Positions 1,360 through 61,974 of a stretch of DNA of 64,000 nt are shown here, in pieces. Origin of the DNA: Vairimorpha necatrix. Its lineage: Eukaryota. The stretch spans positions 434,001-498,000 of the forward strand of contig CP142731.1 of assembly GCA_036630325.1 (NCBI GenBank). Reading direction: 5' to 3'. The notes beneath the pieces are model-generated. The model was given only the letters and a program-made list of their open reading frames with translations. It made no database searches and had not been told where the DNA came from. Position 1 is the stretch's first letter; each line of letters opens with the position of its first letter. Both the position numbers and the translations under genes were made by a program.

Positions 1360-3846
1360 TTATTTCTTAATGAAATACACCCCTGGGAAATTTAGCCCTG
1401 TCTCTTCCATTTGTAAAAGTGTACACCTCCCTCCACTTTTTATTTCTTCATCAGCTTTACTTATTTTTTCTTCTTCTACCACTGGTCTCGCTTTAAATTT
1501 CCTACTCTTTTTCAAATCTGGTACTTTTATTAATTCATTATCATAATTCTTATTATATTTCACATTTCTTTCTTGTAGATCTAAATTCTGATCAAATACA
1601 AAGAAGCCTGTTTCTTTCATATTTAGACTTATTAGATTTATAAAAGGATACCAGTACCAGTAATTTAGAAATAAGACTGCTCCGCATATTCTTTCTTTAG
1701 TAATTTTATTACATAGATTAGTAATACTAAATATTATATTTCTACCACCTGCTTCACTTAATCCTCTACCCAGCATAGCACCAAATTTGACAGAATTCTC
1801 TTCTGATCTGTCTATTATGATTTTATTAATTCTGTTTATAATTCTCTTGTAGTTTTTTACTAAGTGGTCATTACATTGCATGAGGACGAGGCCTATGCCA
1901 ATTAGAGCAGACTGCCTTACTAAAGGACATGAGTCATAAATGAGACCTTCTAGTAGATCACAGACCTTATTATTCCCTGTACCAGAGAAGAAGAATCCCA
2001 AAGTGACTCCTACTCCTGCTCTTACAGACATATTATGATTTTCTGCTAGTGGTTCGAGAGTAGAAATCAAGAGATCTCTGTCTAGACAGCAGACCAGACC
2101 CAAAGAAATGACAGCATTTCTCTTTATGTCATCATTTTCATTATTAATAAAAGGGAGTATTTTACTAATAACGAGTAAATTACCAGTACCCACGTACATA
2201 GTACCCCAACTTAGAATATTCATACTATTACTAGTACTATTAGATATATTATGTAATATATTTGTATTATGTAATATATTTGTATTATGTAATATATTAG
2301 ATACATTAGTACATACATTACTAGTACTATTAGATACATTTGTACTATTAAAACTTTGTAGTAGTGATTGAGATATACTTATTGATCTTTTGACTCTTTC
2401 ATATTCTGTCGTCTTATTTATCTCTTCTAAATACGCCATTAAGTTATCATCCCCTGTTCCACATCCTATAAGTCCCAGTCCGAGTACTGCCGCCTCATTA
2501 TAAATCGTATTCTTAAACTTAATCATCTTTTTTAATTTATCTACTATAAATTGATTATTAGACCCTAAATTAATAAGCCCTAAACCCATACAAACTCCAA
2601 ATACTAAATCTTCAGATAAGAACTCATCAGACTCAATAAAATAAAGAAGTAATTCATTATCTACTTCATTATAAGTACAATGATTTATAAGACCAAGAGC
2701 TTGTAAAGATCCACCATATGAACTAGTACTAGTAGTTTCTTTGTATGTTGACGATCTATCTTCTTTTTTAGTATACAAGGCGCTAGACTCATTTGGTATA
2801 TAATTCTTTAATATTTCATAAGGATTATCATTTTTAAAATGTATCATCCCTAAATTAGATATATCAGAATATCTTGACCATTCCTTAAGATTCCCAAATA
2901 TATCAGAATTATTCCTATAAAATGTATCATTTGTAGTACCAAGATTCATTAGAGAATTAACAAGACTAATATAAGGAGATCTAGATTTAGCAAGGGAATC
3001 TAGAAATTTAAAACTTGTAAGATTCTCTTGAACCATAAATTTAGTAAAGACTTCTTTTTTAAACTGACCTGATAAAATTAACATTAAACAATCTAAATCA
3101 GAACTATCAATATTATTATTATCATTTATATTATTATCAATAATATTGGGTAAGTTGTGGGTCTCTTGAATATAAAATGATAAACTATAACAAAGTGAAA
3201 TATCTGAACATAATAATTCTAATAATAACTTCTTAATTTCATTATGAGAATTAAAATACATGTAAGCATCTACTAAGACACATAATGTATCATAATTCTC
3301 CTTATTCTGATTTTTAATAATAAATTTAAAGAATCTTTCTTTGTCCTCAATTTCATTTACAATGAAATTGAGTAAAGATTTGTTTGTAATTTGTTTGCTG
3401 AAATATTTCTCAAATAAGTCAAATTCACCAATTGAGAACAAGAAGCCTATGCGATCTAAGTCATCTAAATCATTATTATTATTAATATTATTATTAATAT
3501 TGGTTATTAGGTTGATTATAAAGTCTTTACATTTATGATTATTATCTAATAATAATCTACTCATCATTCTCTCTATAAGTGCTTTACTATAAAAACTCTT
3601 CTCTTTTAAAAAGATCTCCCCGCTTTTTATGGCATAATCAATAGAAACTTCATAATCTTGGAGAATGAAATGTATCTTACTTAGACACAAAAGTGACTCA
3701 GGAGTAGAAGCAGAGAAGAGACTTATAAGGTCCTTCATATACAAAGCGAGTGTGTCAATATTGGGATTAATAATAGAAATGGCTTCTTGTTCTTTATTAT
3801 TTTCAAGAAGGTATTTTATATTTGGAAGAATTTTCAGAGACTGCAT
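1360..3846 (-). CDS. RPN2: 26S proteasome regulatory subunit Rpn2 (PSMD1)
   Basis: Rpn2-type N-terminal SKIHFILQDYEVSIDYAIKSG and PC repeats (NDDIKRNAVISLGL, NHNMSVRAGVGVTLG, PLVRQSALIGIGLV, VKFGAMLGRGL). Start moved to ATG 3846 (MQSLK), which follows a CCCCC motif. Confidence 0.92.
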   Translation of the reverse strand: MQSLKILPNIKYLLENNKEQEAISIINPNIDTLALYMKDLISLFSASTPESLLCLSKIHFILQDYEVSIDYAIKSGEIFLKEKSFYSKALIERMMSRLLLDNNHKCKDFIINLITNINNNINNNNDLDDLDRIGFLFSIGEFDLFEKYFSKQITNKSLLNFIVNEIEDKERFFKFIIKNQNKENYDTLCVLVDAYMYFNSHNEIKKLLLELLCSDISLCYSLSFYIQETHNLPNIIDNNINDNNNIDSSDLDCLMLILSGQFKKEVFTKFMVQENLTSFKFLDSLAKSRSPYISLVNSLMNLGTTNDTFYRNNSDIFGNLKEWSRYSDISNLGMIHFKNDNPYEILKNYIPNESSALYTKKEDRSSTYKETTSTSSYGGSLQALGLINHCTYNEVDNELLLYFIESDEFLSEDLVFGVCMGLGLINLGSNNQFIVDKLKKMIKFKNTIYNEAAVLGLGLIGCGTGDDNLMAYLEEINKTTEYERVKRSISISQSLLQSFNSTNVSNSTSNVCTNVSNILHNTNILHNTNILHNISNSTSNSMNILSWGTMYVGTGNLLVISKILPFINNENDDIKRNAVISLGLVCCLDRDLLISTLEPLAENHNMSVRAGVGVTLGFFFSGTGNNKVCDLLEGLIYDSCPLVRQSALIGIGLVLMQCNDHLVKNYKRIINRINKIIIDRSEENSVKFGAMLGRGLSEAGGRNIIFSITNLCNKITKERICGAVLFLNYWYWYPFINLISLNMKETGFFVFDQNLDLQERNVKYNKNYDNELIKVPDLKKSRKFKARPVVEEEKISKADEEIKSGGRCTLLQMEETGLNFPGVYFIKK

Positions 3847-4166
3847 GAATAAAATGGGGGTAAACAAAAAAAAGAAAAATAAAAAAAAACAAAATAGTGA
3901 AAACATTATAATTATTAGAATGAAGATATACAAATTAGAAGATAATATTGTATAAATTAGATTGAAAACATTGTAATAATTAGAATGAAAACATCATAAT
4001 TATTAGAATGAAAACATGGGTTTATTTATTATAAGATAATGTCAACATCTACAAAGACAAACATAATAGAAACATAATAGAAACATATTACAAACATAAT
4101 ACTGAACTATATTAATACAACTAGAATAATAATACTGAACTATAATATTATTTTAAACTTTATTGG

Positions 4167-15631: not shown

Positions 15632-16860
15632 ATGGGACTAACAAAATATTATTTTAATCAAAAATATTGATTTTTATGTAAGGAATGACATTTTTACGAT
15701 TTATATATTTAAATACTTTGATGTTCCATACGCATGAAATTTACACTGTATTTTTAGTAGAGATCTTTAATAACATAAAATAAAATCTAATATATCATTT
15801 TTTTTGTTAGATGTTTGAAATTAATCTATATAAAAATAAAAGAATGTATAATTAAAAAGGTAATAATATTATACATGACAATTTACGTTTTTTAAATTCC
15901 ATGACGATTTTGGTCATGTTTGAATTTTTATCAAATGTTTTAGGTTTTCATAGTATGTCCTAGATTTAACATCATTAAATTTAACAACTCATAATGTAAA
16001 GTTACATTGCTAGAGAAACAAACTTCTCTTGTGTCTTTACAATACTTGAATAATGTATATATATGTATACTGGATTTTTGTAGAGTGTTATATTATAATT
16101 TTAATTCCTTATTGTTGTTTTTATTTATCGGCATACAATAATATAAGCTGCTTAATAAAATGTTCCATCTTATTAAAGCCATGTATTTTAAAATGTAATT
16201 CCACTATCGTATCTAATGAATTATTGTCTATTTTGTGATTTTCATATTAAAAGACTTAACCAACCCCCTCGTAATATGTATTTTTTTTAATTAAATTATA
16301 ATTCGTTGCTCCTATTTAAAAAATAAAAAAACTTGTAGAATTCCGCTTATATCTATTAAATCATAAAAATTTGTGCTTTTGATCTTTTATAGTTATAAAT
16401 TTATGTCTAAATAGTTTATGAGGCCCTTTCCAAACAAATCTTTTAACCAGGACATTTATATCTAGAATGCTGGTTTCAGATTTAAAAAAATATTCCTTTT
16501 AGAAAGACTCTCAAAACATCCCGCATGACTTCTTAGCCACACAAAATGCTGTTGATATTACTTATGCTCGTATTATATTTAGATTTCTATCGAACGTGTC
16601 TCTTTCTTCAATATATATCATATTATTTATTACCTACAAAACATCATCACAGTCTAAATAATTAAAACAGTTTCAAATTTATAAATTGAGGCATGTTTTT
16701 TATGAGAATACCACTTTTTCTAACTTTTCTATTAAAATTTTGGTGCGTTCAATCGATAATATACCGATTAAATAATCCTTATTTCATTCATATTAACAAA
16801 AACTATCGAACAAATTAATTTAGAAGAATTTCAAATTCTGTTACAACAATTAATTTTACT

Positions 16861-17648
16861 TTTTTTCTTGCAAGTAAGAGGTAGGGAGAAACCTTACATA
16901 GGGACAAGAGGGATTTGGGTGTGATCCTCTTCTCTCTGATACTGCGAGATTCTTACTCACTAAAACTACTTCCATACAACTTGTCGGCGCAGCAAGCTCC
17001 GCTGTATCCATTGGGCTTTGGCTCTAGGAGAACACTCCCCATTTATAGCTCAAATCGCGTCCAGAGTGACCTCACAGCGGATATACTTAACGGGCATGGT
17101 TATCTATAACCCGAGGAGAGACATCATCGTACTTTCTCATAGGTCCCTACAATCATCTGTATTGCACACACGGGGTCTTACACGACCACATCACCAGCCC
17201 GGCGGTTTTATTGGGCTGCTTTGACCGCCAGTCTCCCACTAGTTTCGTCCACCGTGTTACAGAATCTTGTAGGATAGGGTCCACGAGACCTTCTAATGCC
17301 CTACTCGTCTAGTCTCTTAGTTAGCTCTAGGATCCCACTCTAGAGTACACCAGCCATGGCCTCCAACTAGGCCGTACCCATTAGATACTTTTATGTATCA
17401 TTAAGTCACCAAAGGGTGATACTGTTTTATGGCTTTGAGGTGCGTTCCTACACTAGATGCTAATCCCCTTGTGGCTGAACACACACAAGTTTCATTGAAT
17501 CAACTTAATGATTATCGTGGACATTTTCATCATCTGAGTTCTTCTAACTGCATCATAGAAAGTAGAAACAATTTTGGTGCCCCTAGGAATCGAACCCAGC
17601 CATTGCTCAATGGAAGCATTGCATTCTACCACTAAGCTAAGGGCACCT
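16861..17648 (-). mobile_element. tRNA-derived SINE (~790 bp) with structured GC-rich body, R1-like tail motif and short A tail
   Basis: tRNA-like head at 17575-17647; A-rich 3' end; flanking direct repeats caattaattttact (16847-16860) and caaataatcttact (17649-17662) match at 12/14; GC clearly above the flanks. Confidence 0.7.
17575..17647 (-). tRNA. Degenerate tRNA-Gly(TCC)-like sequence (SINE head / Pol III promoter), probably not a functional tRNA
   Basis: A box TAGCTTAGTGG, B box GGTTCGATTCC, acceptor stem GGTGCCC/GGGCACC and T stem intact; anticodon arm around CT-TCC-AT does not pair canonically. Confidence 0.75.
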
Positions 17649-17689
17649 CAAATAATCTTACTGTTAGTAAATGATTTTTTAGTTGTAGT

Positions 17690-17930
17690 TATATATGATT
17701 TCCTACGTAATCACTTGGGATGGTATAGTGAAAAGGTTTCACAAATCTTATACCACAAGACTTGAAATCCCTAAGAAGGTAGAAGCGTACATCTAGATGA
17801 TCACGCTAAAGAAGACGCTAGAAAGCATTTCTCTGGACTACCAAAGGAGAGGAGACGAAGCCGATGCGAAAGAACTATGGAAGATAGAAGCTAACTACAA
17901 GCAGGAGACGTTAACGCGAAACTTAATATT
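17690..17930 (+). pseudogene. 3' fragment of an RLE-type (R4/Dong-like) non-LTR retrotransposon ORF
   Basis: Translates ISYVITWDGIVKRFHKSYTTRLEIPKKVEAYI*MITLKKTLESISLDYQRRG, homologous to the C-terminus of the 60.7-62 kb element. Confidence 0.75.
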
Positions 17931-18359
17931 GTTTGGCCAGAAAATAAAATACATCAAACGTAATCCTATTAAATTATTTTATTTAGTTGTAGTTATTCTT
18001 CGCAAACTACAATTAGAAAATCTTCACGCTTAATGTATGTATGGTAGTAACTTCTAATTTATTTTTACTTTTTAATATACATTTACTGTGTAAATATTTC
18101 AAAATTAAATTTTACGCATTTAAAAACTAAATTATCTGCGACTGAAAGATTTAATTGTTGGATGTCTGGTGTAGTTTATATAAAGTTGATTTTATGAGTT
18201 TTATCATTAATTAGTAGAATGTAAATACAATATATTATTATATGCTACGTTAAAAAATCGTAAAACCAATATCTTGGGTTTTTATATTTGTTTGTTTATG
18301 TTTCGTATTGACAACAAAGTGTTTCGTATCTCTATAAAAAAAACAACACATTGTAAACA

Positions 18360-46045: not shown

Positions 46046-49000
46046 TGTGGTAGACTACCACCTAGTAATCAGCAATGTAACCAATAATCAGCTTTTAAAC
46101 AGTTTCATGTTGAAACTCAAGATTCTCATCAATAATCTAAAACAATAGTTTCATAATAAAATATAAAAGAGAAAATTTTGTAAATAAATATGGTTTTCAA
46201 CAGAAACAACTCTTTTAACTACTCAGCTCACTCTTCACCTTACACCGGTTACCATACGTTGAATTCAACGTTCAAAGATTCAAGACCATCTAAAGCTTCA
46301 AGAAGAAACAACATCTTATCAACTCAACCTAACTTAACAACTCTACCTCAAGAACCAACGGAAGCATTTACATTCGCTACCAAAGTAGGCGAGCAAAAAG
46401 GACCAAATATTCAAATCGAAAAATTATACGATCTCGATTTGCAAGATGTCCATAAATGGACCGATAAATACAGAAACATAATCAACTTGTCGTCAATGGA
46501 AGAACCCACAGCATTATATACGTTACATCTCTTAATCAGTCCAGAACTTCTCTATATTATAAACCCAGCATTGGATGCAGAGGAAGCACTTCAACTTTTA
46601 GTAAACCACTATTATAACCCATCAAGATTTTCAATCTTCATCAACCAACTAAGGAATTTGAATTACAAAAACTACAACAATATACAGCAGTTTACAAAAG
46701 CATTTTTAACAATTCTAACTAAGTGTAATTTATGTTTACAAATTAATGAAAGGCTCACCACTCGAGAAAAGAATGAAATTTTTTGCAGAAGCTTGCCATT
46801 TTGGATGAAACAAGAAATAGTAAGAAGTTCAGAAAACAGCAACTTTGAAAGCCTAGCTAATCTTCTAGCACCCTTGGAACTATTACGCAACTCATCAAAC
46901 TATGAACAAAGGGAAGAAAAAACTGAAAGAAGATCTCATCTAAACTATTTTAGAAAAAACTCTTGTAGTACAAATCAAGACGATTTAAGACAACATAACC
47001 GAAATTCCCAGTTCCCATCACAAAAATCTATTAATCAATGGTGCAAATACCATAAAACCACGAAACATAGCACGGAAGAATGCAGGAAGATGAAATCATT
47101 CAATCAAAATAAAAGTCATAATAATTATTCATCTTTTAACCTAGTTCGAGAAAAACCTACAACACCAGACAAAATTGAATTTATGGGAACAATAGAAGGC
47201 GCACCAGTTACGATTCTATTCGACCCTGGGGCCACACTTTCATACATTTCAGAAAAAACATCCAGAAAATTAAATTTAAAACAAATCGAAGTGGATGGAA
47301 AATTGGTCGCAGAAGTCGCAAATGGAGACACCATCAAGATCAATCATAAGACCGATATAAAATTTAGATTGGACGCAATTAAAGATACAACATTCAAACT
47401 TTCCGCATTCATTATGCCAGGCATGAGACAAGACATTACTTTAGGACTCCAATTTTTAGGAGCACAAGACTTTAAGATGGACCTGAAGGAAGGATTGATC
47501 TCATTGAACAATAAGGAAATAGAAATTCCAGGTTTTAACACGTTCTATAAAACTCATCCTGATAAAGAAATTATAGATAAAATATTTAACATTCACTCAG
47601 AACTCATTAGTAACAAAATAAAAAAAGCTAAAAAAGAGAATAAGGAACTAGGAAAAATTGAGACGATTACACATAGTATTTCACTTAATTCTGCGCAACC
47701 AATAACCTCGAAACCGTACGCGATACCGACCAAATTGTATCAACAAGTTAAAGACGAAATTCATAATTTACTTAAAAATGGAATTATTCGAGAAAGTTAC
47801 TCACCCTTCGCATCTCCCGCTTTTCCAATCCAAAAGAAGAATGGCAACATAAGACTCGTTATCGATTATCGTAAACTTAATAGTATCACAGTAAAAGAGG
47901 CCTTTCCCTTCCCTAGCTTAAAGGACCAAGTTCACGGCTTATATGGATGCTCTAAATTTTCTCAGTTAGACTTAAACAAAGGTTATTATCAAATTCTCGT
48001 ATCAGAAGAGGACATACCGAAGACCTCCTTCATCACTCCGTTTGGTCAATACGAATTTTTACGGATGCCTTTCGGATTAACAAATGCACCAAGAACGTTC
48101 CAACGAGCAATGCAATCCATACTCGGCGACTTACCTTTTGTCAAAATATTTTTAGACGATATTTTAATACATAGTAAATCTACAGAAGAACATGCTATAC
48201 ACCTAAAAACAGTTATAGAAAAACTTCAAGGAGCAAATTGTTCTATCAATTTCGACAAATCCGTATTTAACAAGAGCGAAGTTAAATATTTAGGATTGAT
48301 TATCGACAAGGAAGGAATTAGAGCCGACACATCGAGAATTACATCTATTGATTTAATTAATAATCCAACTACAGTAAAGCAAGTACAAAGATTACTTGGA
48401 ATCTTTAATTGGTTTCGAGATTTTATTCCAAATTTAAGCACTAAACTCGCAAAACTGAACGCAAAATTATGTAAAAAAGACAAAGAAAAATTCTGTTGGA
48501 CAGACGAAGACACAAACATCAAACAAGAAATTATCCAAATTATTAAATCACAAATACTATTACATCATGCCGATCCCGAAAAAGAATTTCAGCTAAGAAC
48601 AGATGCAAGCGATCATGGTATAGGAGCTATCTTATGTCAAGACACAAAAATAATAGGAATCTTTAGCAAGAAATTCACATCTCCCGAAAAGAATTACACA
48701 ACTATTGAAAAAGAACTTTTAGCTATCATTGAAGGCCTTAAACATTTTAAAAATCTGATATTTGACACTAAAGTAACCATTTACACAGATTCAAAAAATT
48801 TAACCTTTCTTGGCTCAGCAAGCTCACAACGTGCCCAAAGATGGAAAATACTTCTAGAGGAATTTAATTCTTCAATAAAGCATATAAATGGCAGTGAAAA
48901 CCAAGGACCCGATTACTTTTCGAGAATATACAGCATCCAATCGATTACCAAAAATTCGAAATTTCCCATCTTTTACACTCTGAAATCATTATACAAGGCC

Positions 49001-50303
49001 CAAACCGATAACCCTGTGCCGCAACACATTAAAAATAATCTAGGGTTAAACTGTACACAATTTGACAATTACAATCTTCTCCATTCAAATTATAAAATAT
49101 ATGTTCCTGAAAGAAACGCCAAAAAATACATAAAAGAAATTCATGAATTCCTCAATCATGCCGGAATATCTCGGTTATACAGTACAATTGCCAAATTTCT
49201 TAAAATTTATCAGTTACGAAGTCTCATCGAAGAAGTAATAAAGAATTGCAGAGTTTGTGAAATAAATAAACCTAGGAGAACAAATTATGGCTACGTTTCT
49301 GGTTTCCTACATTCTACAACAAAGTTAAAAAACATTGCATCGGATTTATATGGACCGATAGATCTTCGTCATTTCCAAGAGGAAGGTAAAGGCTATATAC
49401 TATCAATAGTCGATAGCCACAGCAGATATACGAAATTAATTTTACTGTTGTCTATTACAGGGGAAAAGGTGGTTAAAGAAATAGAATCAAAATGGATCAA
49501 AGAATTCGGACCACCATCGAGTATACTTACTGATCAAGGACGTCAGTATACTTCAAGTGAATTTGAAAGATTTTGCCAAAGGTATCACATTAAGCATAAA
49601 ATGACATCAACCTACAACCCTACTTCTAACAGCATAACAGAAAGAACAAACCAACTCATCGGATTAGGACTACGATGCAATTTGGACAATAATATTGGTG
49701 ATGTGATTCACAAGATTCAGGAGGGAATAAATAACAGTCACAACCGATCAGTCGGATTTTCGCCAAACGAAATAATTAACAACCATAGTATCTTTGACCC
49801 AATTCAAAGACCTTTAAATTGCAGCGAGGGAAATGTAAACCGGATAGCAATTACAGAAGCGAAGAAAAATAATATTATATTAAATTCAAAACGGCAAACA
49901 CAATTTAAATTTAAAATTGGAAATTACGCTTATGAAAAAAATATATTTAGGACGAAGTTAGACCCTCATTGGTTAGGACCCTTTTTAATTATGGACGTGA
50001 AAGCGAACAACAATACAGTATTGGTAGATAAAATCGACAAGTTACAGTGGATCAATATAAAACGACTTAGACCCTCTCGACGGGGGGAAACCTGTGGTAG
50101 ACTACCACCTAGTAATCAGCAATGTAACCAATAATCAGCTTTTAAACAGTTTCATGTTGAAACTCAAGATTCTCATCAATAATCTAAAACAATAGTTTCA
50201 TAATAAAATATAAAAGAGAAAATTTTGCAAATAAATATGGTTTTCAACAGAAACAACTCTTTTAACTACTCAGCTCACTCTTCACCTTACACCGGTTACC
50301 ATA
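46046..50303 (+). mobile_element. Intact young Ty3/gypsy element, palindrome-PBS type
   Basis: 211-bp LTRs (46046-46256; 50093-50303) with one mismatch seen; TSD ATCTT; PPT ggggggaaa; termini TG..TA. Confidence 0.97.
46190..50134 (+). CDS. Single-ORF Gag-Pol polyprotein (Gag, PR, RT, RNase H, integrase)
   Basis: 1314 aa uninterrupted; WCKYHKTTKHSTEEC, LFDPGAT, FLDD, TDASD, HHCC, DLYGP/TDQGRQY/ITER, GPF. Confidence 0.96.
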   Translation: MVFNRNNSFNYSAHSSPYTGYHTLNSTFKDSRPSKASRRNNILSTQPNLTTLPQEPTEAFTFATKVGEQKGPNIQIEKLYDLDLQDVHKWTDKYRNIINLSSMEEPTALYTLHLLISPELLYIINPALDAEEALQLLVNHYYNPSRFSIFINQLRNLNYKNYNNIQQFTKAFLTILTKCNLCLQINERLTTREKNEIFCRSLPFWMKQEIVRSSENSNFESLANLLAPLELLRNSSNYEQREEKTERRSHLNYFRKNSCSTNQDDLRQHNRNSQFPSQKSINQWCKYHKTTKHSTEECRKMKSFNQNKSHNNYSSFNLVREKPTTPDKIEFMGTIEGAPVTILFDPGATLSYISEKTSRKLNLKQIEVDGKLVAEVANGDTIKINHKTDIKFRLDAIKDTTFKLSAFIMPGMRQDITLGLQFLGAQDFKMDLKEGLISLNNKEIEIPGFNTFYKTHPDKEIIDKIFNIHSELISNKIKKAKKENKELGKIETITHSISLNSAQPITSKPYAIPTKLYQQVKDEIHNLLKNGIIRESYSPFASPAFPIQKKNGNIRLVIDYRKLNSITVKEAFPFPSLKDQVHGLYGCSKFSQLDLNKGYYQILVSEEDIPKTSFITPFGQYEFLRMPFGLTNAPRTFQRAMQSILGDLPFVKIFLDDILIHSKSTEEHAIHLKTVIEKLQGANCSINFDKSVFNKSEVKYLGLIIDKEGIRADTSRITSIDLINNPTTVKQVQRLLGIFNWFRDFIPNLSTKLAKLNAKLCKKDKEKFCWTDEDTNIKQEIIQIIKSQILLHHADPEKEFQLRTDASDHGIGAILCQDTKIIGIFSKKFTSPEKNYTTIEKELLAIIEGLKHFKNLIFDTKVTIYTDSKNLTFLGSASSQRAQRWKILLEEFNSSIKHINGSENQGPDYFSRIYSIQSITKNSKFPIFYTLKSLYKAQTDNPVPQHIKNNLGLNCTQFDNYNLLHSNYKIYVPERNAKKYIKEIHEFLNHAGISRLYSTIAKFLKIYQLRSLIEEVIKNCRVCEINKPRRTNYGYVSGFLHSTTKLKNIASDLYGPIDLRHFQEEGKGYILSIVDSHSRYTKLILLLSITGEKVVKEIESKWIKEFGPPSSILTDQGRQYTSSEFERFCQRYHIKHKMTSTYNPTSNSITERTNQLIGLGLRCNLDNNIGDVIHKIQEGINNSHNRSVGFSPNEIINNHSIFDPIQRPLNCSEGNVNRIAITEAKKNNIILNSKRQTQFKFKIGNYAYEKNIFRTKLDPHWLGPFLIMDVKANNNTVLVDKIDKLQWINIKRLRPSRRGETCGRLPPSNQQCNQ

Positions 50304-50943: not shown

Positions 50944-53738
50944 TATCACCGTCCGGAGCGGACGCAGGGGAAAATGCTTACTGGAGAAGGGTAAAAAATT
51001 AAGTAAAAAAATCGTTGGTTTTTCTTTGTAATTTGTATATTAAAAGTATAAATTTTAAAAGCATGAAAATAAAATTGGATAACAATGAAAGACAAGAAGT
51101 TTTTGTCTTTTTACAGACTGGTATCGTTCCAATAAGGTAGGTTGAAAGACAAGTAAGAGACGCTTTTAGGAAAAAAGCAAAAAAATTTATCCTTTTTGAG
51201 GATGTAATTGATGGTATCACAGAGCTCACGGTGAGATTTAAAGTAGGTCTAAAAAGAACGTTAAGATTCTTTACCACAAACGAGCAATGTTTACAAATTG
51301 ATCCACGTCTCAAATGGGCATTCGGGACGGGACAGATTATTTCCATTATTGCAAACAAAAGTCTACGACGCAACCAAAAATGATATCCAGAGAGTTTTGA
51401 ATAGCTGTGGAATATGTCAATCAAAGAGAAATCTAGTAACTAGACCAGTTATTAGACCAATTTTATCAAAATATCCAAGGGAAAGATATGTTGCAGACTT
51501 GATTGATCTCCGTCTAAATCACGAACTCAATGAAGTATATAAATGGTTATTAAATGTTGTAGATTCTTTTACCAAATTTTGTTGGACGGTACCAAAATAT
51601 GACAAATCAAGTATTAGTGTAGGGAATGCTTTTGAAACATTGTTTGGGACGTTTGGCCCTTGTTTTATACTTCATACTTATAACGGCAGAGAATTTGTAA
51701 ATCAAGTACTCGTCGATTTATGTCAGAAATATGAAATAAGACACGTAATGGGGAGAGCTAGATGTCCATGGATACAAGGACAGATAGAACGATGCAATAA
51801 AACAATAAAGTGGATGATTGCATCTACTTACAGGACAAAAAATATTTTGGGTCAATGGACCAAAGTACGTGAAGAAGTTACCTGGTCATATAATAATTTA
51901 AGACACATTACTACGAGACAAACACCATTCTCTTTAATGTTTGGAAGACCCATCAGGGAAATAATGAACGAATCTAGAATCACGGGTATTCTAGATTCGT
52001 TTAATAGCGAAAATCAAAAACAATAAAGTGAGAACGAAGAACGCGCCGAAGAAAGTTTATCAGATGTTCTAGATTGCAACACCAATGAAGAAATACAGTA
52101 ACTATATGCTCTTAATAAACAAAACCTTTTTTTAAATGAAATTTATTATGAAGGAGCTAGAATTCATACACAAACTGCTGCAGATAGAATGGTACAAAGA
52201 AGTATGTGGAGAAATGATTTCTTAGAATTTAAAATAGGAGTTAGAGTCCTTATAAGACCTTATCTGGACAACAATGTCAATACCAGAAGCCATTCGCTTT
52301 ATGAACATTTAGATGCAGAAATCTATGTTGTAACCGACATAATACAATTTAATAAAGTGAAATTATGCAGAGAAGATTATAATAGAATTATTATAGATGA
52401 AATAAGTACTAGGGATCTTAGGTTGCTTGGAAATGAATAAAGTACTAAAAATTTTGTTTATAATATTTTTCTCCTTTTTTCATTATTCCCTCCCATTATT
52501 ATAAAAAAATAGCAAAAATTTACCTCTCAAAAGATCGAGACAAAATTTGGGCAATCATTTAAGACGAACATTTGGCTAAAAACAGCTTTAGTGTAAAAAA
52601 AATGGGGGGGGGGGTCAAAATTTTTAAAAAATTGCCCCTTTTTTTAAAAAAGGAAGGGAATGCTGAGCAATGAAGAAATTATAGATTTTTATGAAAACCT
52701 ACAAAATAAAAAATATAAACAAAAATGTACAATTTGTGGTTGGAATACATCTAGAGTATCCAATGAAACAGCTTTTCTTAGATGTAAGTTTCTCAAATGC
52801 GGCCAAAGATTTTCAATATGGAATAATACTCTATTTTCAAATAGTAAGATAGATCATATTCTTATGCTGAAAATTGTTAATCTATGAACAATGGGACTTA
52901 AAGTAGCGCATATTTCTAAAATTTTGGACTGTAACATACAAAATGTAACTTCTACACTGGAAAAATTATATAAATTAAAAATATATGAGAAATATATAAA
53001 TAAAACAAAGCAAATAGGAGGCGAAAATACTATAGTGGAGATCTATGAAAGTAAAATTGGCAAAAATAAGCATCATAGGGGAAGATTAGTTAAGGGGGTT
53101 TGGTGTTTCGGTATGGTGGAACGAACCGAAGCAAAGAAGATTATATTCATAATTATAAAGAAAAGAGACAGGGATACATTATTTCCAATCATGTTTAAGC
53201 AGGTAAAATGCGAATCCGTAATTCATTCGGATATGTGGAGGGCGTATGCAACGTTAAAAAATCATTATGCGGACCATAGGACTGTGAATCACAGTCAACC
53301 CTTTAGAGACAGAGAGACAGGTGTGCATACAAACACCATAGAAGGAAATTGGAGGTCTTTAAAGGCCTCTATACCTAATAGGTGGAGGACTTATAAACTT
53401 GCTGAAATATATTTAGTTCTATATATGATTAAAAGAAACGAGAGCAAAGAAATCTTCGAAGCATTATTAAAATTATGTTTTTGATATATTTTATTTATTT
53501 TAAATTTAATTTTCATGCATTTTTATATCTTAATTATATTTTATTTTTTTTCTTCATTGCTCAGCATTCCCTTCCTTTTTTAAAAAAAGGGGCAATTTTT
53601 TAAAAATTTTGACCCCCCATTTTTTTTACACTAAAGCTGTTTTTAGCCGAACATTTATTTGTTCTTATTTTTTGGTTCGATCCTCACTGAAGAGATTTTT
53701 TTGAATTTTTTTCATGGCATCCGCTCTGGACTGTGACA
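50944..53738 (+). mobile_element. Ginger-like (retroviral-type integrase) DNA transposon A, pseudogenised, with nested Merlin
   Basis: 22-bp TIRs (tatcaccgtccggagcggacgc / gcatccgctctggactgtgaca, 18/22); integrase 51063-52440 with HHCC, ADLID, HTYNGREF, QGQIER; no RT or gag. Confidence 0.82.
52574..53648 (+). mobile_element. Merlin DNA transposon (transposase 52660-53484, one in-frame TGA)
   Basis: ~100-bp TIRs starting GG; perfect 8-bp TSD GAACATTT; HSDMWRAY and HTNTIEGNW motifs. Confidence 0.95.
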
Positions 53739-55827: not shown

Positions 55828-57055
55828 GGCGCTACTTCATTTTCTTGCCCCCCCCCCCCTAAAAAAAACATTAATAAAAAGATACGAAATCGTGTTATTT
55901 TTCAAATCTAAACATTTTTTTTTTTTTTTGAGGGGGGCAAGAAAATGAAGTTAAGGTATTTTTTGTCGATTTGAAAATTTTTAAATGCCTCCTGCAGATT
56001 CCTCATTAAGGGGATAAAAAATTTTAATTTTTTATCCCCTTAATGAGGAATCTGCAGGAGGCTATTCGAGAGCTAAATATCTGCGAAGATGCGTGCTTTA
56101 GGAACAATGAAGCAGCAATTGATTTTTTTTAGATAATGGTCTTCTAAAAAGATCGATTGCTTGCAGACATTGTTCGACATCAGAACGAACTGTTCTTATG
56201 AACATTAGTGGATGTTCCGGCTACATTGACGGTAAAGCTTATCGTTGTGTTAATAAAAAGTGTAGTTCGAAGAGCTCACTTAAAAATGGTACGATGTTTA
56301 AAGGAATAAGCGTTCCATTTCACAAAATTCTTAGAGCATTCTATTGCTGGGTATTTAATTATACTACTTACCAAGCAATAGATCTGTGCAAAATATGTGA
56401 AAATTCATATATTAAAATCAAGGATACAGTGATGGAAATCATTGCTTCTAAAAAGCGAAGATAGCTACCAAATTGGAGGAACTTCTGTTCGTGTACAATT
56501 TGATGAAACCGCCATATGCAACGGGTTAATTGTATCTAATCCTTCTTCAAGTTTGGATTCCATGCCTGGAATTCAATGGATTATAGGCGGCATAGTAGAA
56601 GGTAATTGTAGAGAATTTGTTCTTGAATTGCTACCTAACCGATAATCTAGTACTATAGAAGACTTTTTTAGACGCAGAGTAAAACCTGGCTCTATTATAA
56701 TTACTGATGGATACCCTTCATATCCATCAGCCTCTAGAAATTTTGGCAGTGAACATTACATAGTAAATCATTCGCTTGGATTTATAAATGCAGAAGGAGA
56801 CCACACAAATAATATAGAAAATTTGTGGTCCCATTTGAAGAATGAGTATAGATCTAGAAGTGGGCTTAAAAGGCATAGGATTAATTTATTTCTAAAAGAA
56901 TTTGCTTGGAAAAAAAGAAATATCAATCATTCTAATAATGATGATCATAGATGTGCCTTTATAAAAATTTTAGAACTTTGTAGGTTTGAATAAATAAAAT
57001 TTCCTCTAAATAATTTTTTTTTTCTAGGGGGGGGGCAAGAAAATGAAGTAGCGCC
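55828..57055 (+). mobile_element. Merlin DNA transposon inserted in the Ginger B zinc finger (transposase ~56043-56993, disrupted)
   Basis: TIR GGCGCTACTTCATTTTCTTGCCCCCC; perfect 8-bp TSD AACGATTG; VQFDETA, ITDGYPSY, HTNNIENLW motifs. Confidence 0.95.
55987..56062. repeat. Perfect 37-bp-arm palindrome with 2-nt loop over the transposase CCC motif and ATG
   Basis: gcctcctgcagattcctcattaaggggataaaaaatt-tt-aattttttatccccttaATGaggaatctgcaggaggc. Confidence 0.97.
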
Positions 57056-57979
57056 AACGATTGTGTCCATAATGACACTTACTATGTAGAGTTTGTACTT
57101 CCAATTTCATTGACTGTACCTTACTCTCTACAACTACCCTATTATGTAAGCCAGAAATATCTCTTAGAAAGAGAATATTATCTGCAAGAAGGAACTTTTC
57201 GGCATTTTACCTCGGCCTATACCTTGCTTGTTTGTCGATGATCGTGGTAAAATCATCTCCTTAAACGATTTTTACCAGAAGATCATACTCTTCTTGAGTT
57301 TTGATTCTTTTCATTGATGGGATAAAAAAATATTTTCCAAAAAAGTTAAAATTTGTTTGAATATACTAATTTTTCTTTATGCTTAAGCTTTTTGGCTCAG
57401 TGGTTACTATTGCGTCTTTGACTTTAGTATTTTGGATCAAGCATCATATGGGTAAAAATTTAGTAGAAAAATTAAAAATAGTTCACGTGATACAACTAAC
57501 GAAACTTGGCATAAATTATGAAAATATAGATCATAAATAAAAATTAAAAAATACAAGAAAATAATCTGGTAACAGTCCGGCTCGGGCAACCAGTTGGGCT
57601 CGCGACATTTAATACTCCAATAACACCAAGTTTTTTAATAACATTTTACATACAACAGAATGTACTTCGTTTTTATATTATTGAAATATAGGTTGCTAGT
57701 AATTTTGGCCTTCGCTTTTCTATTTTTAAAACTCATTTTGTGTTGTAATTTTATAAAAATTGAATGTCCAAAAAAATCGATTTAAAAGTATACAACCCTA
57801 TGTCATATATATATTGGACGCATCCAACGGCGGAGCTCGTGTGCCACAATAATGCAAAAATAATTAAAAATGATAGAATTTTGATATCAATAAATTTAAA
57901 AGAAAATCGGAAATTGTGTAAAAAAAACATCAGTTTAAAATTTAATTGGCCCTTTTACAGGGAAAGAAAAGAATGAATG

Positions 57980-59117
57980 GGTCAATTTCCACTTTACACT
58001 CCCCTTCTACATATAAAAATACAAATTTTAAAAATATCCCTTTTTTGGAAAACCAAAATGGAAAAAAAAGGAGGAGAAAATTTTAAAATAATAAATTTAT
58101 TAATTCATCAAAATAATTAAGTTTTGAATTTCTAAGCAACATAAATCTTAATAAATAGGGTAGTATTAAATCTTTTGTTATACATCTTACCGGTGTTATG
58201 CGTCTAACGGCAGACCAATTCCCTTCTATAGTGTTAGTATGAACACCTGTGATAGGATCTACAATCACTTACTATGGTTAACTGTTTTGTGAGACCCAAG
58301 TCTCGATCATTTTCGAATATCCTTTCCACGTATCAGAATAGACTGTTGATTGTTTATCAACATATGTGGAAATTAGACTTAATAACGTATCTTTATCTTT
58401 ATTTGGAACAGGAACTAAAAGAATTTTTCTTTCTAAAGTCCTTTCGACCATCCTAAATACCCACACTCCCTCTACTTTATGTCCAACGTTGTATTTACGA
58501 TTTCCAAATTTGCTTTCGTCTACTTCGACTATTATCTCCGAACCGCCTAGTGTTCCTTTTGCCTTTTTCATGTATTTATGATAAACTTCATCAAGCAAAA
58601 ACTGTTGAAGACATCTCGATACAATGCTGGGTGAAATACTTAACAACTTGGCGATTAGGAGAGGCGGAATTTTCGTAAGCCAGAGGTTTAGAATCTTTAA
58701 CATTAGTATATAATCCAAGTGGGTTTTTGCAAATATCGTATCTGTAAAAAGGTTCCTCTCTTTTTTTTTGCATTTTTTACCAATGTATCTGACAGCGTTT
58801 CCCTTTTGCTGTATTTTCTTAACATCTTTACCACATTTGCTGCATTTTTTAAAAAGTTTTTCTTTTATCTTTTCGTATGCTATGTTAATTTCCTCGTTGG
58901 TAAGCATAAAATAGGGTACAGGAAAAAAAATCTATAATCGGTGCTACTAAAGAACTAAGAACTTATTTTTACTTATAAAACAAAGAAATAAGTCCAATAA
59001 ATAACTTATTCGATTGTTTTGTTTATTCATTATCTATAAAAAAAACAAAATATATACTAATAAATATGTAACATAAGGTGAATTATAGTATCATATTTGT
59101 TTTTATATGGTAAAATT

Positions 59118-60659: not shown

Positions 60660-61974
60660 ATTAATAGCACGGCTTTCCCCGGTATCGCTCATGGGATTAA
60701 GCTCTATACAGACTTTGGTTTCTATGGAATTATTTATGTTTTTCAACTTTAAACTTTCAGCTTAATTCCTCTTTCCCGACACCACTTCTTTAACAGTTGC
60801 CATATTCGCTAGTGCGCTTACAGCTCTAGCCACTTCTTCCTCTCCTGCATCCTCCTAACCATAACCTCGTTGTCGTTCCAAAGAGATGAACTCTAGAGTC
60901 TTCTTCATTACAATAGATTTGATATATGCATCCAGGTAGGGTTAGATTTCCAGATCCCGATGTAATTATGTGATATTTGTTCACCGCTCAATTCCATGTC
61001 ATTACATAAGGAGCTATACTTGTCCAGGATTTATTTATTAGTCCCAGTTCATATGCAAGAAGGTCCATGTTCTAAGTTTGCCGTTCTCGGCTATAGTAAG
61101 TCGATCCCGGAAGGTTGTACCAACTTTAACTATTTAAATTTCTTTCTTCTTCTTGTCAAACACAAGAATATCAGGCTTATTATGGGTCACCTTTATATTA
61201 GTGAATATTCTCGTATCTACTCTTATGTCTGCACGATCATTTTCCATGATATCTTGTACTGAGTGTCCACGTGTTTTTTTTTGTCCTTTTAAACCCATAT
61301 TTATTACATAGTAAGAGATGAATGCATCTAACTACCTCGTTGTGTCTTTTCATATAATCAAAGCCATCATTCGATCACACTTGGGAGGTAAATGATCCAC
61401 GGTCTTCCTATGAGATCCATAATGGGAACATTGTCCTTCTTGGCCACAGAAAATAGTTCTATTCTGTAGGAAGCAGTAAATTGCTTCGGATTTAGCCCGA
61501 TTGTTTCCTTTAACCAGCCAGTTAGAAGAGTCCTTAATGCTGACCAAAATATTGTCACTGACCTTCAAAAATTTTCCATGGTTTGTCCTTATGTCAATTT
61601 TGTTGTATAGCGCTTCTTTTTGTGATTCTATTAGCATCTTCTAGGTTATCTCTCCTACAAAGCTATACCTAATCCTTAGATACTCGTTAAATGTAAACAA
61701 GTGGGATTTGCTCTATGTCTCTACTTTAAGTATCGCTAACAGTCTTAGTGAGCTCTTTCTAGAACCATCTAATGTTATTTAAATATTCAGAAGCATACCT
61801 TCGCTTCTATCTTCGATACTTATGAGACCTCTACCCATTTCGGATCTAGGTAGGTATAGTCTTTCCTTGCAGGCAGGCAGTAGATGGACCTGGTACTTGA
61901 TAAGTACCTGTCGTATATCAAAATCAAGATTTTTGTAATCTATTGGTTCTAATTTTAATAATCCTAAATGCTAG
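60660..61974 (-). mobile_element. 3' portion of a degenerate RLE-type (R4/Dong-like) non-LTR retrotransposon
   Basis: ERLYLPRSEMGRGL, CCHC-like QCSH..RKTVDHL..KC, HNEVVRCIH, NKPDILVFDKKKKE, PYVMTW; interrupted by the next gypsy. Confidence 0.85.

Follow-up and report, generated by a model that had tools for sequence, protein, structure and literature searches.

tRNA-derived SINEs combine a head carrying A and B boxes with a non-coding body, an A-rich tail and a flanking duplication, and they occur in many dispersed copies. SINEBase, in the portion of its description used here, places SINEs below 700 bp, with a range of 75-662 nt among 175 families, and gives as the commonest layout (41% of families) a tRNA head followed by a body of unidentified origin and an A-rich tail (PMC3531059). 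In the fungal lineage, AfuSINE2 of Aspergillus fumigatus is described, in the available part of its report, as tRNA-related and accompanied by short direct repeats of 4-14 bp (PMC5063351), and the lepidopteran elements PxSE1-3 and HaSE1-2, as presented in the accessible sections of PMC8010984 and PMC3272025, also consist of a tRNA-related head and then a body. In the literature that we found for microsporidia, the main texts of which were searched, no SINE is described. The main texts of the broad microsporidian surveys PMC7313128 and (within the part available) PMC4202319 do not contain the term, nor does that of PMC12449221; the genome paper of Microsporidia sp. MB reports zero SINEs (PMC11585130), and SINEs appear in PMC13702014 as a RepeatMasker category only.

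Here we analyze a non-coding repeat unit of 787 nt that lies on the minus strand, from 17647 to 16861, of a 64-kb stretch of DNA from the microsporidian Vairimorpha necatrix; the whole of this stretch is called the window hereafter. Comparison of its sequence suggests, with a probability that we put at roughly 0.85, that the unit is a moderately old copy of a multi-copy family of tRNA-derived SINEs in this microsporidian. With the tRNA-derived SINEs it shares a Pol III-type head with A and B boxes, the lack of coding capacity, an A-rich tail with target-site duplication and many dispersed copies with common ends, the latter recovered in the contigs of three sequencing runs (X1, X2 and X3). It differs from them in its length, which at 787 nt exceeds the bound of 700 bp, in its microsporidian host and in that its transcription by Pol III is predicted. 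The original prediction had called it an unusually long SINE, and this description stands for an element that is present in high copy in independent runs and is bracketed by a target-site duplication; its length stretches the usual limit of SINEs, the concept being an ordinary one. Likened by description to AfuSINE2 and similar fungal SINEs, as the available text presents them, it has in common with them a tRNA-related head, short direct repeats and a fungal lineage, and it is distinguished by being much GC-richer than its own genome and by a 14-bp duplication. The arrangement of head and body is also that of the lepidopteran elements, for which no homology is claimed. A Nosema-like parasite with a high-copy, 0.8-kb retroposon of Pol III type would extend the transposons of microsporidia by one class and would imply active LINE machinery working in trans, and a SINE so rich in copies could serve as a marker for strain typing and for tests of DNA exchange between host and parasite.

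Anatomy of the unit and marks of its insertion

Read on the minus strand, the unit opens with GGTGCCC at 17647 and ends in a run of A at 16866-16860. Its degenerate tRNA-like head (17575-17647, minus strand), the putative Pol III promoter module, is the single tRNA-like gene that ARAGORN recognizes in the whole 64-kb window. The program reads it as tRNA-Met(CAT), so that, of the tRNA-Gly-like head originally predicted, the likeness to tRNA is upheld and the assignment to Gly is not; the isotype may be either Gly or Met. With the Rfam tRNA model the head scores 26.6 bits, below the gathering score of 29, and its similarity to the mascRNA model is weak (23.3 bits vs a gathering score of 42.5). 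The head retains an intact 7-bp acceptor stem, T arm and T loop, with perfect pairing in the acceptor and T arms, and the D and anticodon regions form one long hairpin in which the anticodon arm is aberrant. The head thus has neither the functional anticodon arm nor the score above the Rfam threshold that characterize a genuine tRNA. Its predicted fold has a z value of -3.50, none of 200 shuffled sequences being equally stable.

The textbook consensus of the two promoter boxes is TRGCNNAGTGG for the A box and GGTTCGANNCC for the B box. Both are matched exactly in the head, as predicted, by the A box TAGCTTAGTGG at 17629-17639 and the B box GGTTCGATTCC at 17586-17596 (both on the minus strand), which lie 32 nt apart. 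The A-box pattern has two matches in the window, vs 0.19 expected, and the B-box pattern has one, vs 0.09 expected. The second A-box match, at 57393-57403, is not accompanied by a B box and was rejected as another head.

The body (16867-17574, minus strand) is non-coding, with a GC content of 45.5% and a length of ~707 nt, close to the ~710 nt initially estimated, and its origin is unassigned by similarity. Its longest stop-to-stop reading frames encode 55 aa in the sense and 86 aa in the antisense direction; the search for homologues of the 86-aa antisense frame found none, and lacking relatives it was rejected as a real gene. No similarity was found between the body and the rest of the 64-kb window, and comparison of the window with P0002, a reverse transcriptase protein considered below, gave no match inside the SINE. 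The body folds no better than shuffled sequence: its minimum free energy is -208.1 kcal/mol, vs -199.9 +/- 6.8 kcal/mol for the shuffles, 3 of 20 of which reach the same stability (z -1.21). The A7 tail that follows the body (16860-16866, minus strand) agrees with the A-rich end of the original prediction, and its last A doubles as the opening letter of the 3' duplication.

On the transcribed strand the first run of four T (T4) is found at 16965-16962, after 682 nt without internal T4, which is the position given by the original prediction. The accompanying argument, namely that such a late T4 is unlikely in AT-rich DNA and fits Pol III read-through, does not survive, because the relevant background is the element's own composition (46% GC) and not AT-rich DNA. 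A T4 as late as this occurs in 2,011 of 20,000 composition shuffles (10%) and therefore carries no weight as evidence of selection for Pol III read-through. Situated 105 nt before the 3' end of the SINE, this T4 could stop Pol III early.

The unit is bracketed by the two arms of a target-site duplication, both read on the minus strand: AGTAAGATTATTTG at 17649-17662, directly before the head, and AGTAAAATTAATTG at 16847-16860, directly after the A run. AGTAAGATTATTTG and AGTAAAATTAATTG are identical at 12 of 14 positions, in agreement with the flanking direct repeat already predicted, and of the 125,346 other 14-mers in the window only 1 is equally similar to AGTAAGATTATTTG (p ~1.7e-4 allowing 21 offsets). 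The duplication encloses head and body as one unit. A 764-aa ORF and an adaptor-complex mu-like gene, which are divergently oriented, flank the element in an intergenic space of 2.7 kb, and the copy at 17647-16861 gives no sign of having a function.

Copies of the unit in public sequencing runs

The presence of a repeat family was evaluated by aligning the contigs of public sequencing runs to the stretch at an identity of at least 80%. Three of the five runs listed, none of which is recorded as RNA, contain part of the stretch, namely X1, X2 and X3, the last being a bat-gut metagenome. Run X1 contributes 504 contigs (67 at 99% identity or above, 157 at 95-99%, 153 at 90-95% and 127 below 90%), with a summed depth of 4,812-306,016 over positions 16856-17653 vs 20.3 in the unique flank at 16457-16741. 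The corresponding values are 301 contigs (32, 53, 85 and 131 in the same identity classes) and a depth of 206-904 vs 3.64 for the same flank in X2, and 21 contigs (1, 1, 10 and 9) and a depth of 1.6-24 vs a flank depth of 0 in X3; run X4 has no contigs and zero depth in both unit and flank. The summed depth of the unit is thus 60 to 15,000 times that of the unique flanks in X1 and X2, and the contigs that cover the unit number hundreds in each of these two runs.

The contigs of X1 and X2 cover exactly the SINE unit, at 80-100% identity, and their loose ends pile up at both of its edges, 16860 and 17648. Before 16860 the loose ends are T runs on the plus strand (n = 37 in X1), from which it follows that other copies possess longer A tails. 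Behind 17648 they consist of unrelated flanks (X2). The common 5' edge of the family coincides with the first base of the head, and the head is joined to the body in contigs of X1, X2 and X3. Because it belongs to a multi-copy family with common ends, we classify the unit as a SINE-type retroposon and not as a single-copy gene for a non-coding RNA.

The copy at 17647-16861 is diverged and moderately old, as judged from at least 28 sites within the element at which it departs from a letter common to most other copies, together with the two mismatches of its duplication. Its divergent sites comprise 12 AT-to-GC and 10 GC-to-AT differences from the majority letters, with no net AT drift. Shorter, internally deleted relatives also exist, as follows from 29 internal-deletion joints in X1, which skip 68-339 nt among the 15 listed, and from the middle of the unit (17198-17425), which is shallower in this run than the head-proximal and tail parts. 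The window itself contains one copy of the SINE, and no bridge between this copy and its flanks is present among the contigs listed, an absence that carries no weight.

LINE fragments and the 3' tail

We infer transcription by Pol III, mobilization with a LINE partner and the timing of the insertions. Pol III would transcribe the SINE from the internal promoter in its head, and the resulting A-tailed transcript of ~0.8 kb would then be copied into AT-rich DNA by a resident LINE reverse transcriptase; this step would proceed by target-primed reverse transcription and would leave a target-site duplication of 14-15 bp.

The DNA adjacent to the SINE contains a LINE fragment that is not part of it (17693-17981, plus strand). 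This is the C-terminal, 5'-truncated piece of a non-LTR element of the type with reverse transcriptase, CCHC motif and restriction-like endonuclease, in which 38 of 54 aa (70%) are identical to residues 1064-1117 of P0002 and an in-frame TAG is found at 17794-17796. P0002 has 1148 aa and contains RVT_1, a CCHC motif and a PD-(D/E)xK-like C-terminus, without an APE domain (Pfam), and its reverse transcriptase matches L1 ORF2 and R2 proteins in PDB. The fragment has its own target-site duplication, TTTAGTTGTAGTTAT, the 5' arm of which (17678-17692) is identical at 15 of 15 positions to the 3' arm (17982-17996, both on the plus strand); the extended duplication matches at 17 of 18 positions (17675-17692 vs 17979-17996). 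Because this duplication is perfect, the LINE fragment probably inserted after the SINE did. In X1 and X2 it, too, is present in multiple copies, and its other copies extend beyond 17698 in the upstream direction as coding sequence. The window contains another, different piece of a LINE (60867-61970, minus strand), with 37% aa identity to residues 744-1113 of P0002. Two LINE fragments, one of them with a perfect 15-bp duplication, show that LINE machinery which makes 15-bp duplications exists in this genome, but they do not identify it as the partner of the SINE.

The fragment adjacent to the SINE faces it in head-to-head orientation, and 45 nt separate its 5' end from the tRNA-like head, upstream of which it lies. 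In Dictyostelium, TRE5 elements are located upstream of tRNA genes and target Pol III promoters. By analogy, the spacing of 45 nt and the orientation of the fragment may reflect targeting of a Pol III promoter, although the arrangement was seen once and could be a coincidence.

Near the 3' end of the SINE we found, as predicted, a string of 27 nt (16943-16969, minus strand) that contains the only T4, at 16965-16962. The original prediction likened this string to the hairpin motif in the 3' UTR of insect R1-clade LINEs and their partner SINEs, and the likeness to such tails is confined to its presence. In contrast to those systems, the window offers no LINE of R1 or APE type as a counterpart, and the tail has no similarity to those of the resident LINE fragments and forms no significant hairpin. 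Scanning 38 ORFs of the window against Pfam retrieved no APE endonuclease domain and no LINE of R1 or APE type; the retroelements among these ORFs are gypsy-type and are accompanied by Merlin-like DDE transposases. The last 200 nt of the SINE, aligned with the 3' ends of the two LINE fragments, give local scores of 20 and 17, where shuffled sequences average 18.3 and 15.9 and reach at most 25 and 27; the tail of the SINE therefore resembles neither LINE 3' end in the window. In the minimum free energy structure of the tail (the last 140 nt), GUGAGUAAGA pairs with UCUUACUUGC near the 3' end, and this hairpin was rejected as a significant structure with z -0.15 over the same 140 nt. A full-text search for the letters of the motif in the papers available produced nothing relevant, its single match being a potato primer. 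The R1-clade tail motif of the original prediction is consequently not substantiated.

Two possible relatives outside the sequencing runs were considered and read as chance, the chance matches expected per scan being ~0.05-0.1 by rough arithmetic. The GC-rich metagenome contig L001 (654-682) shares only 27 of 29 nt of the tail motif and has no informative ORF or Rfam match, and L002, a bacterial MAG contig from a prokaryote collection, shares a 22-mer of the body, extending over only 23 nt. At one site of the tail motif L001 carries the letter of the majority of copies.

Alternative readings, residence and surrounding DNA

A functional single-copy gene for a telomerase, RNase P/MRP or SRP-like RNA, in which the tRNA-like leader acts as promoter and processing signal, would account for a GC island within AT-rich DNA, for a head with intact acceptor and T arms and weak mascRNA resemblance, and for the 682 nt without internal T4. 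We nevertheless consider such a gene hardly credible, given multiple copies with variable flanks and A tails, the target-site duplication, a fold with z -1.21 that 3 of 20 shuffles equal and a T4 position found in 10% of shuffles. The scan of the window with Rfam 15 returned no match at gathering score and none for the body at E below 3, and hence no structured RNA of the RNase P/MRP, SRP, telomerase RNA or other families; the telomerase-RNA reading was dropped in view of the repeat family and the lack of excess structure. The RNA gene driven by a tRNA leader, offered as an option in the original prediction, is thus disfavoured, and the locus is not of the single-copy, Rfam-matching kind which that prediction regarded as incompatible with a SINE. 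The tRNA call of ARAGORN could also be taken at face value, the locus then being a real tRNA gene next to which, directly downstream, an unrelated piece of a retroelement happened to insert; in some organisms retroelements are clustered in the vicinity of Pol III genes. This, too, is extremely improbable: the head scores below the Rfam threshold for tRNA and lacks a properly formed anticodon arm, contigs of three runs carry head and body without interruption, the 5' edge of the family is the first base of the head, and the duplication brackets head and body together. Wrong joining of host DNA into a parasite contig, by chimera or contamination, would in turn explain why the insert is a GC outlier with junctions that remain uncrossed among the X1 and X2 contigs listed, but it is very improbable in the face of a 12/14 duplication of parasite-type, AT-rich sequence at both edges and of parasite genes on both sides in one contig; moreover, unitigs break at repeats anyway.

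The alternative with most bearing on the history of the family is that the SINE arrived recently by horizontal transfer from an arthropod host, or is shared with it, the parasite copies being a side branch of an insect family. Its GC content of 45.9% (up to 53.5% in 200-nt windows) makes the SINE the GC-richest feature in the window, which averages 30%, compared with 30-37% for the other transposons, 24-38% for the genes and 23% for the adjoining intergenic DNA. The ratio of element to flank depth differs at least 10-fold between X1 and X2, on account of which part of the depth signal could stem from another genome, such as that of the host. Moreover, X3, the gut metagenome of an insect-eating bat, contains the element at a depth of 1.6-24 with none of the unique flanks. 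Precedents are documented for transposon exchange between microsporidia and animals (in the available part of PMC4202319) and for transfer of a SINE between baculovirus and moths (in that of PMC8010984). On the other hand, a thinly covered microsporidian in X3 would likewise be visible through its high-copy repeats only, so that the empty flank bins of this run carry no weight, and X3 also holds a trace of the neighbouring LINE family. Some SINE contigs are at the single-copy depth of the parasite, four words of the element searched in viral contigs found no match, and this copy displays no net AT drift relative to the majority letters (12 vs 10 sites). We therefore regard a recent exchange with an arthropod as unlikely; if it occurred, the family would provide the first demonstrated case of a SINE passing between an animal and a microsporidian.

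The SINE family that we favour as a resident of the parasite is represented by contigs at the depth of the unique flanks, with values of 16.6 and 20.2 vs 20.3 in X1 and of 3.7-5.3 vs 3.64 in X2, where the parity is close to the assembly floor and constitutes weak evidence. Across X1, X2 and X3 the abundance of the neighbouring LINE family varies in parallel with that of the SINE. The genes around the copy are microsporidian. RPN2 (1360-3906, minus strand), a Nup98-like protein and a kinase are further products encoded on this contig, and among named proteins those of Encephalitozoon and Ordospora come closest to RPN2, at 41-43% identity; comparison of RPN2 and the kinase with PDB found no microsporidian entry. 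Unnamed proteins reach 57-60% identity to RPN2, and the parasite thus seems to lack a closely related named organism within the set of 8,000 candidates that were scored.

The right-hand 40 kb of the window (23900-64000) is a transposon graveyard. It contains one intact gypsy-type element of 1314 aa (46190-50134) and broken gypsy-type elements at 28-32 kb, 34-37 kb, 43-45.5 kb, 51-52 kb and 62-64 kb, together with pieces of ISXO2/Merlin-like DDE transposases at 52891-53484, 56646-56990 and 58278-58907.
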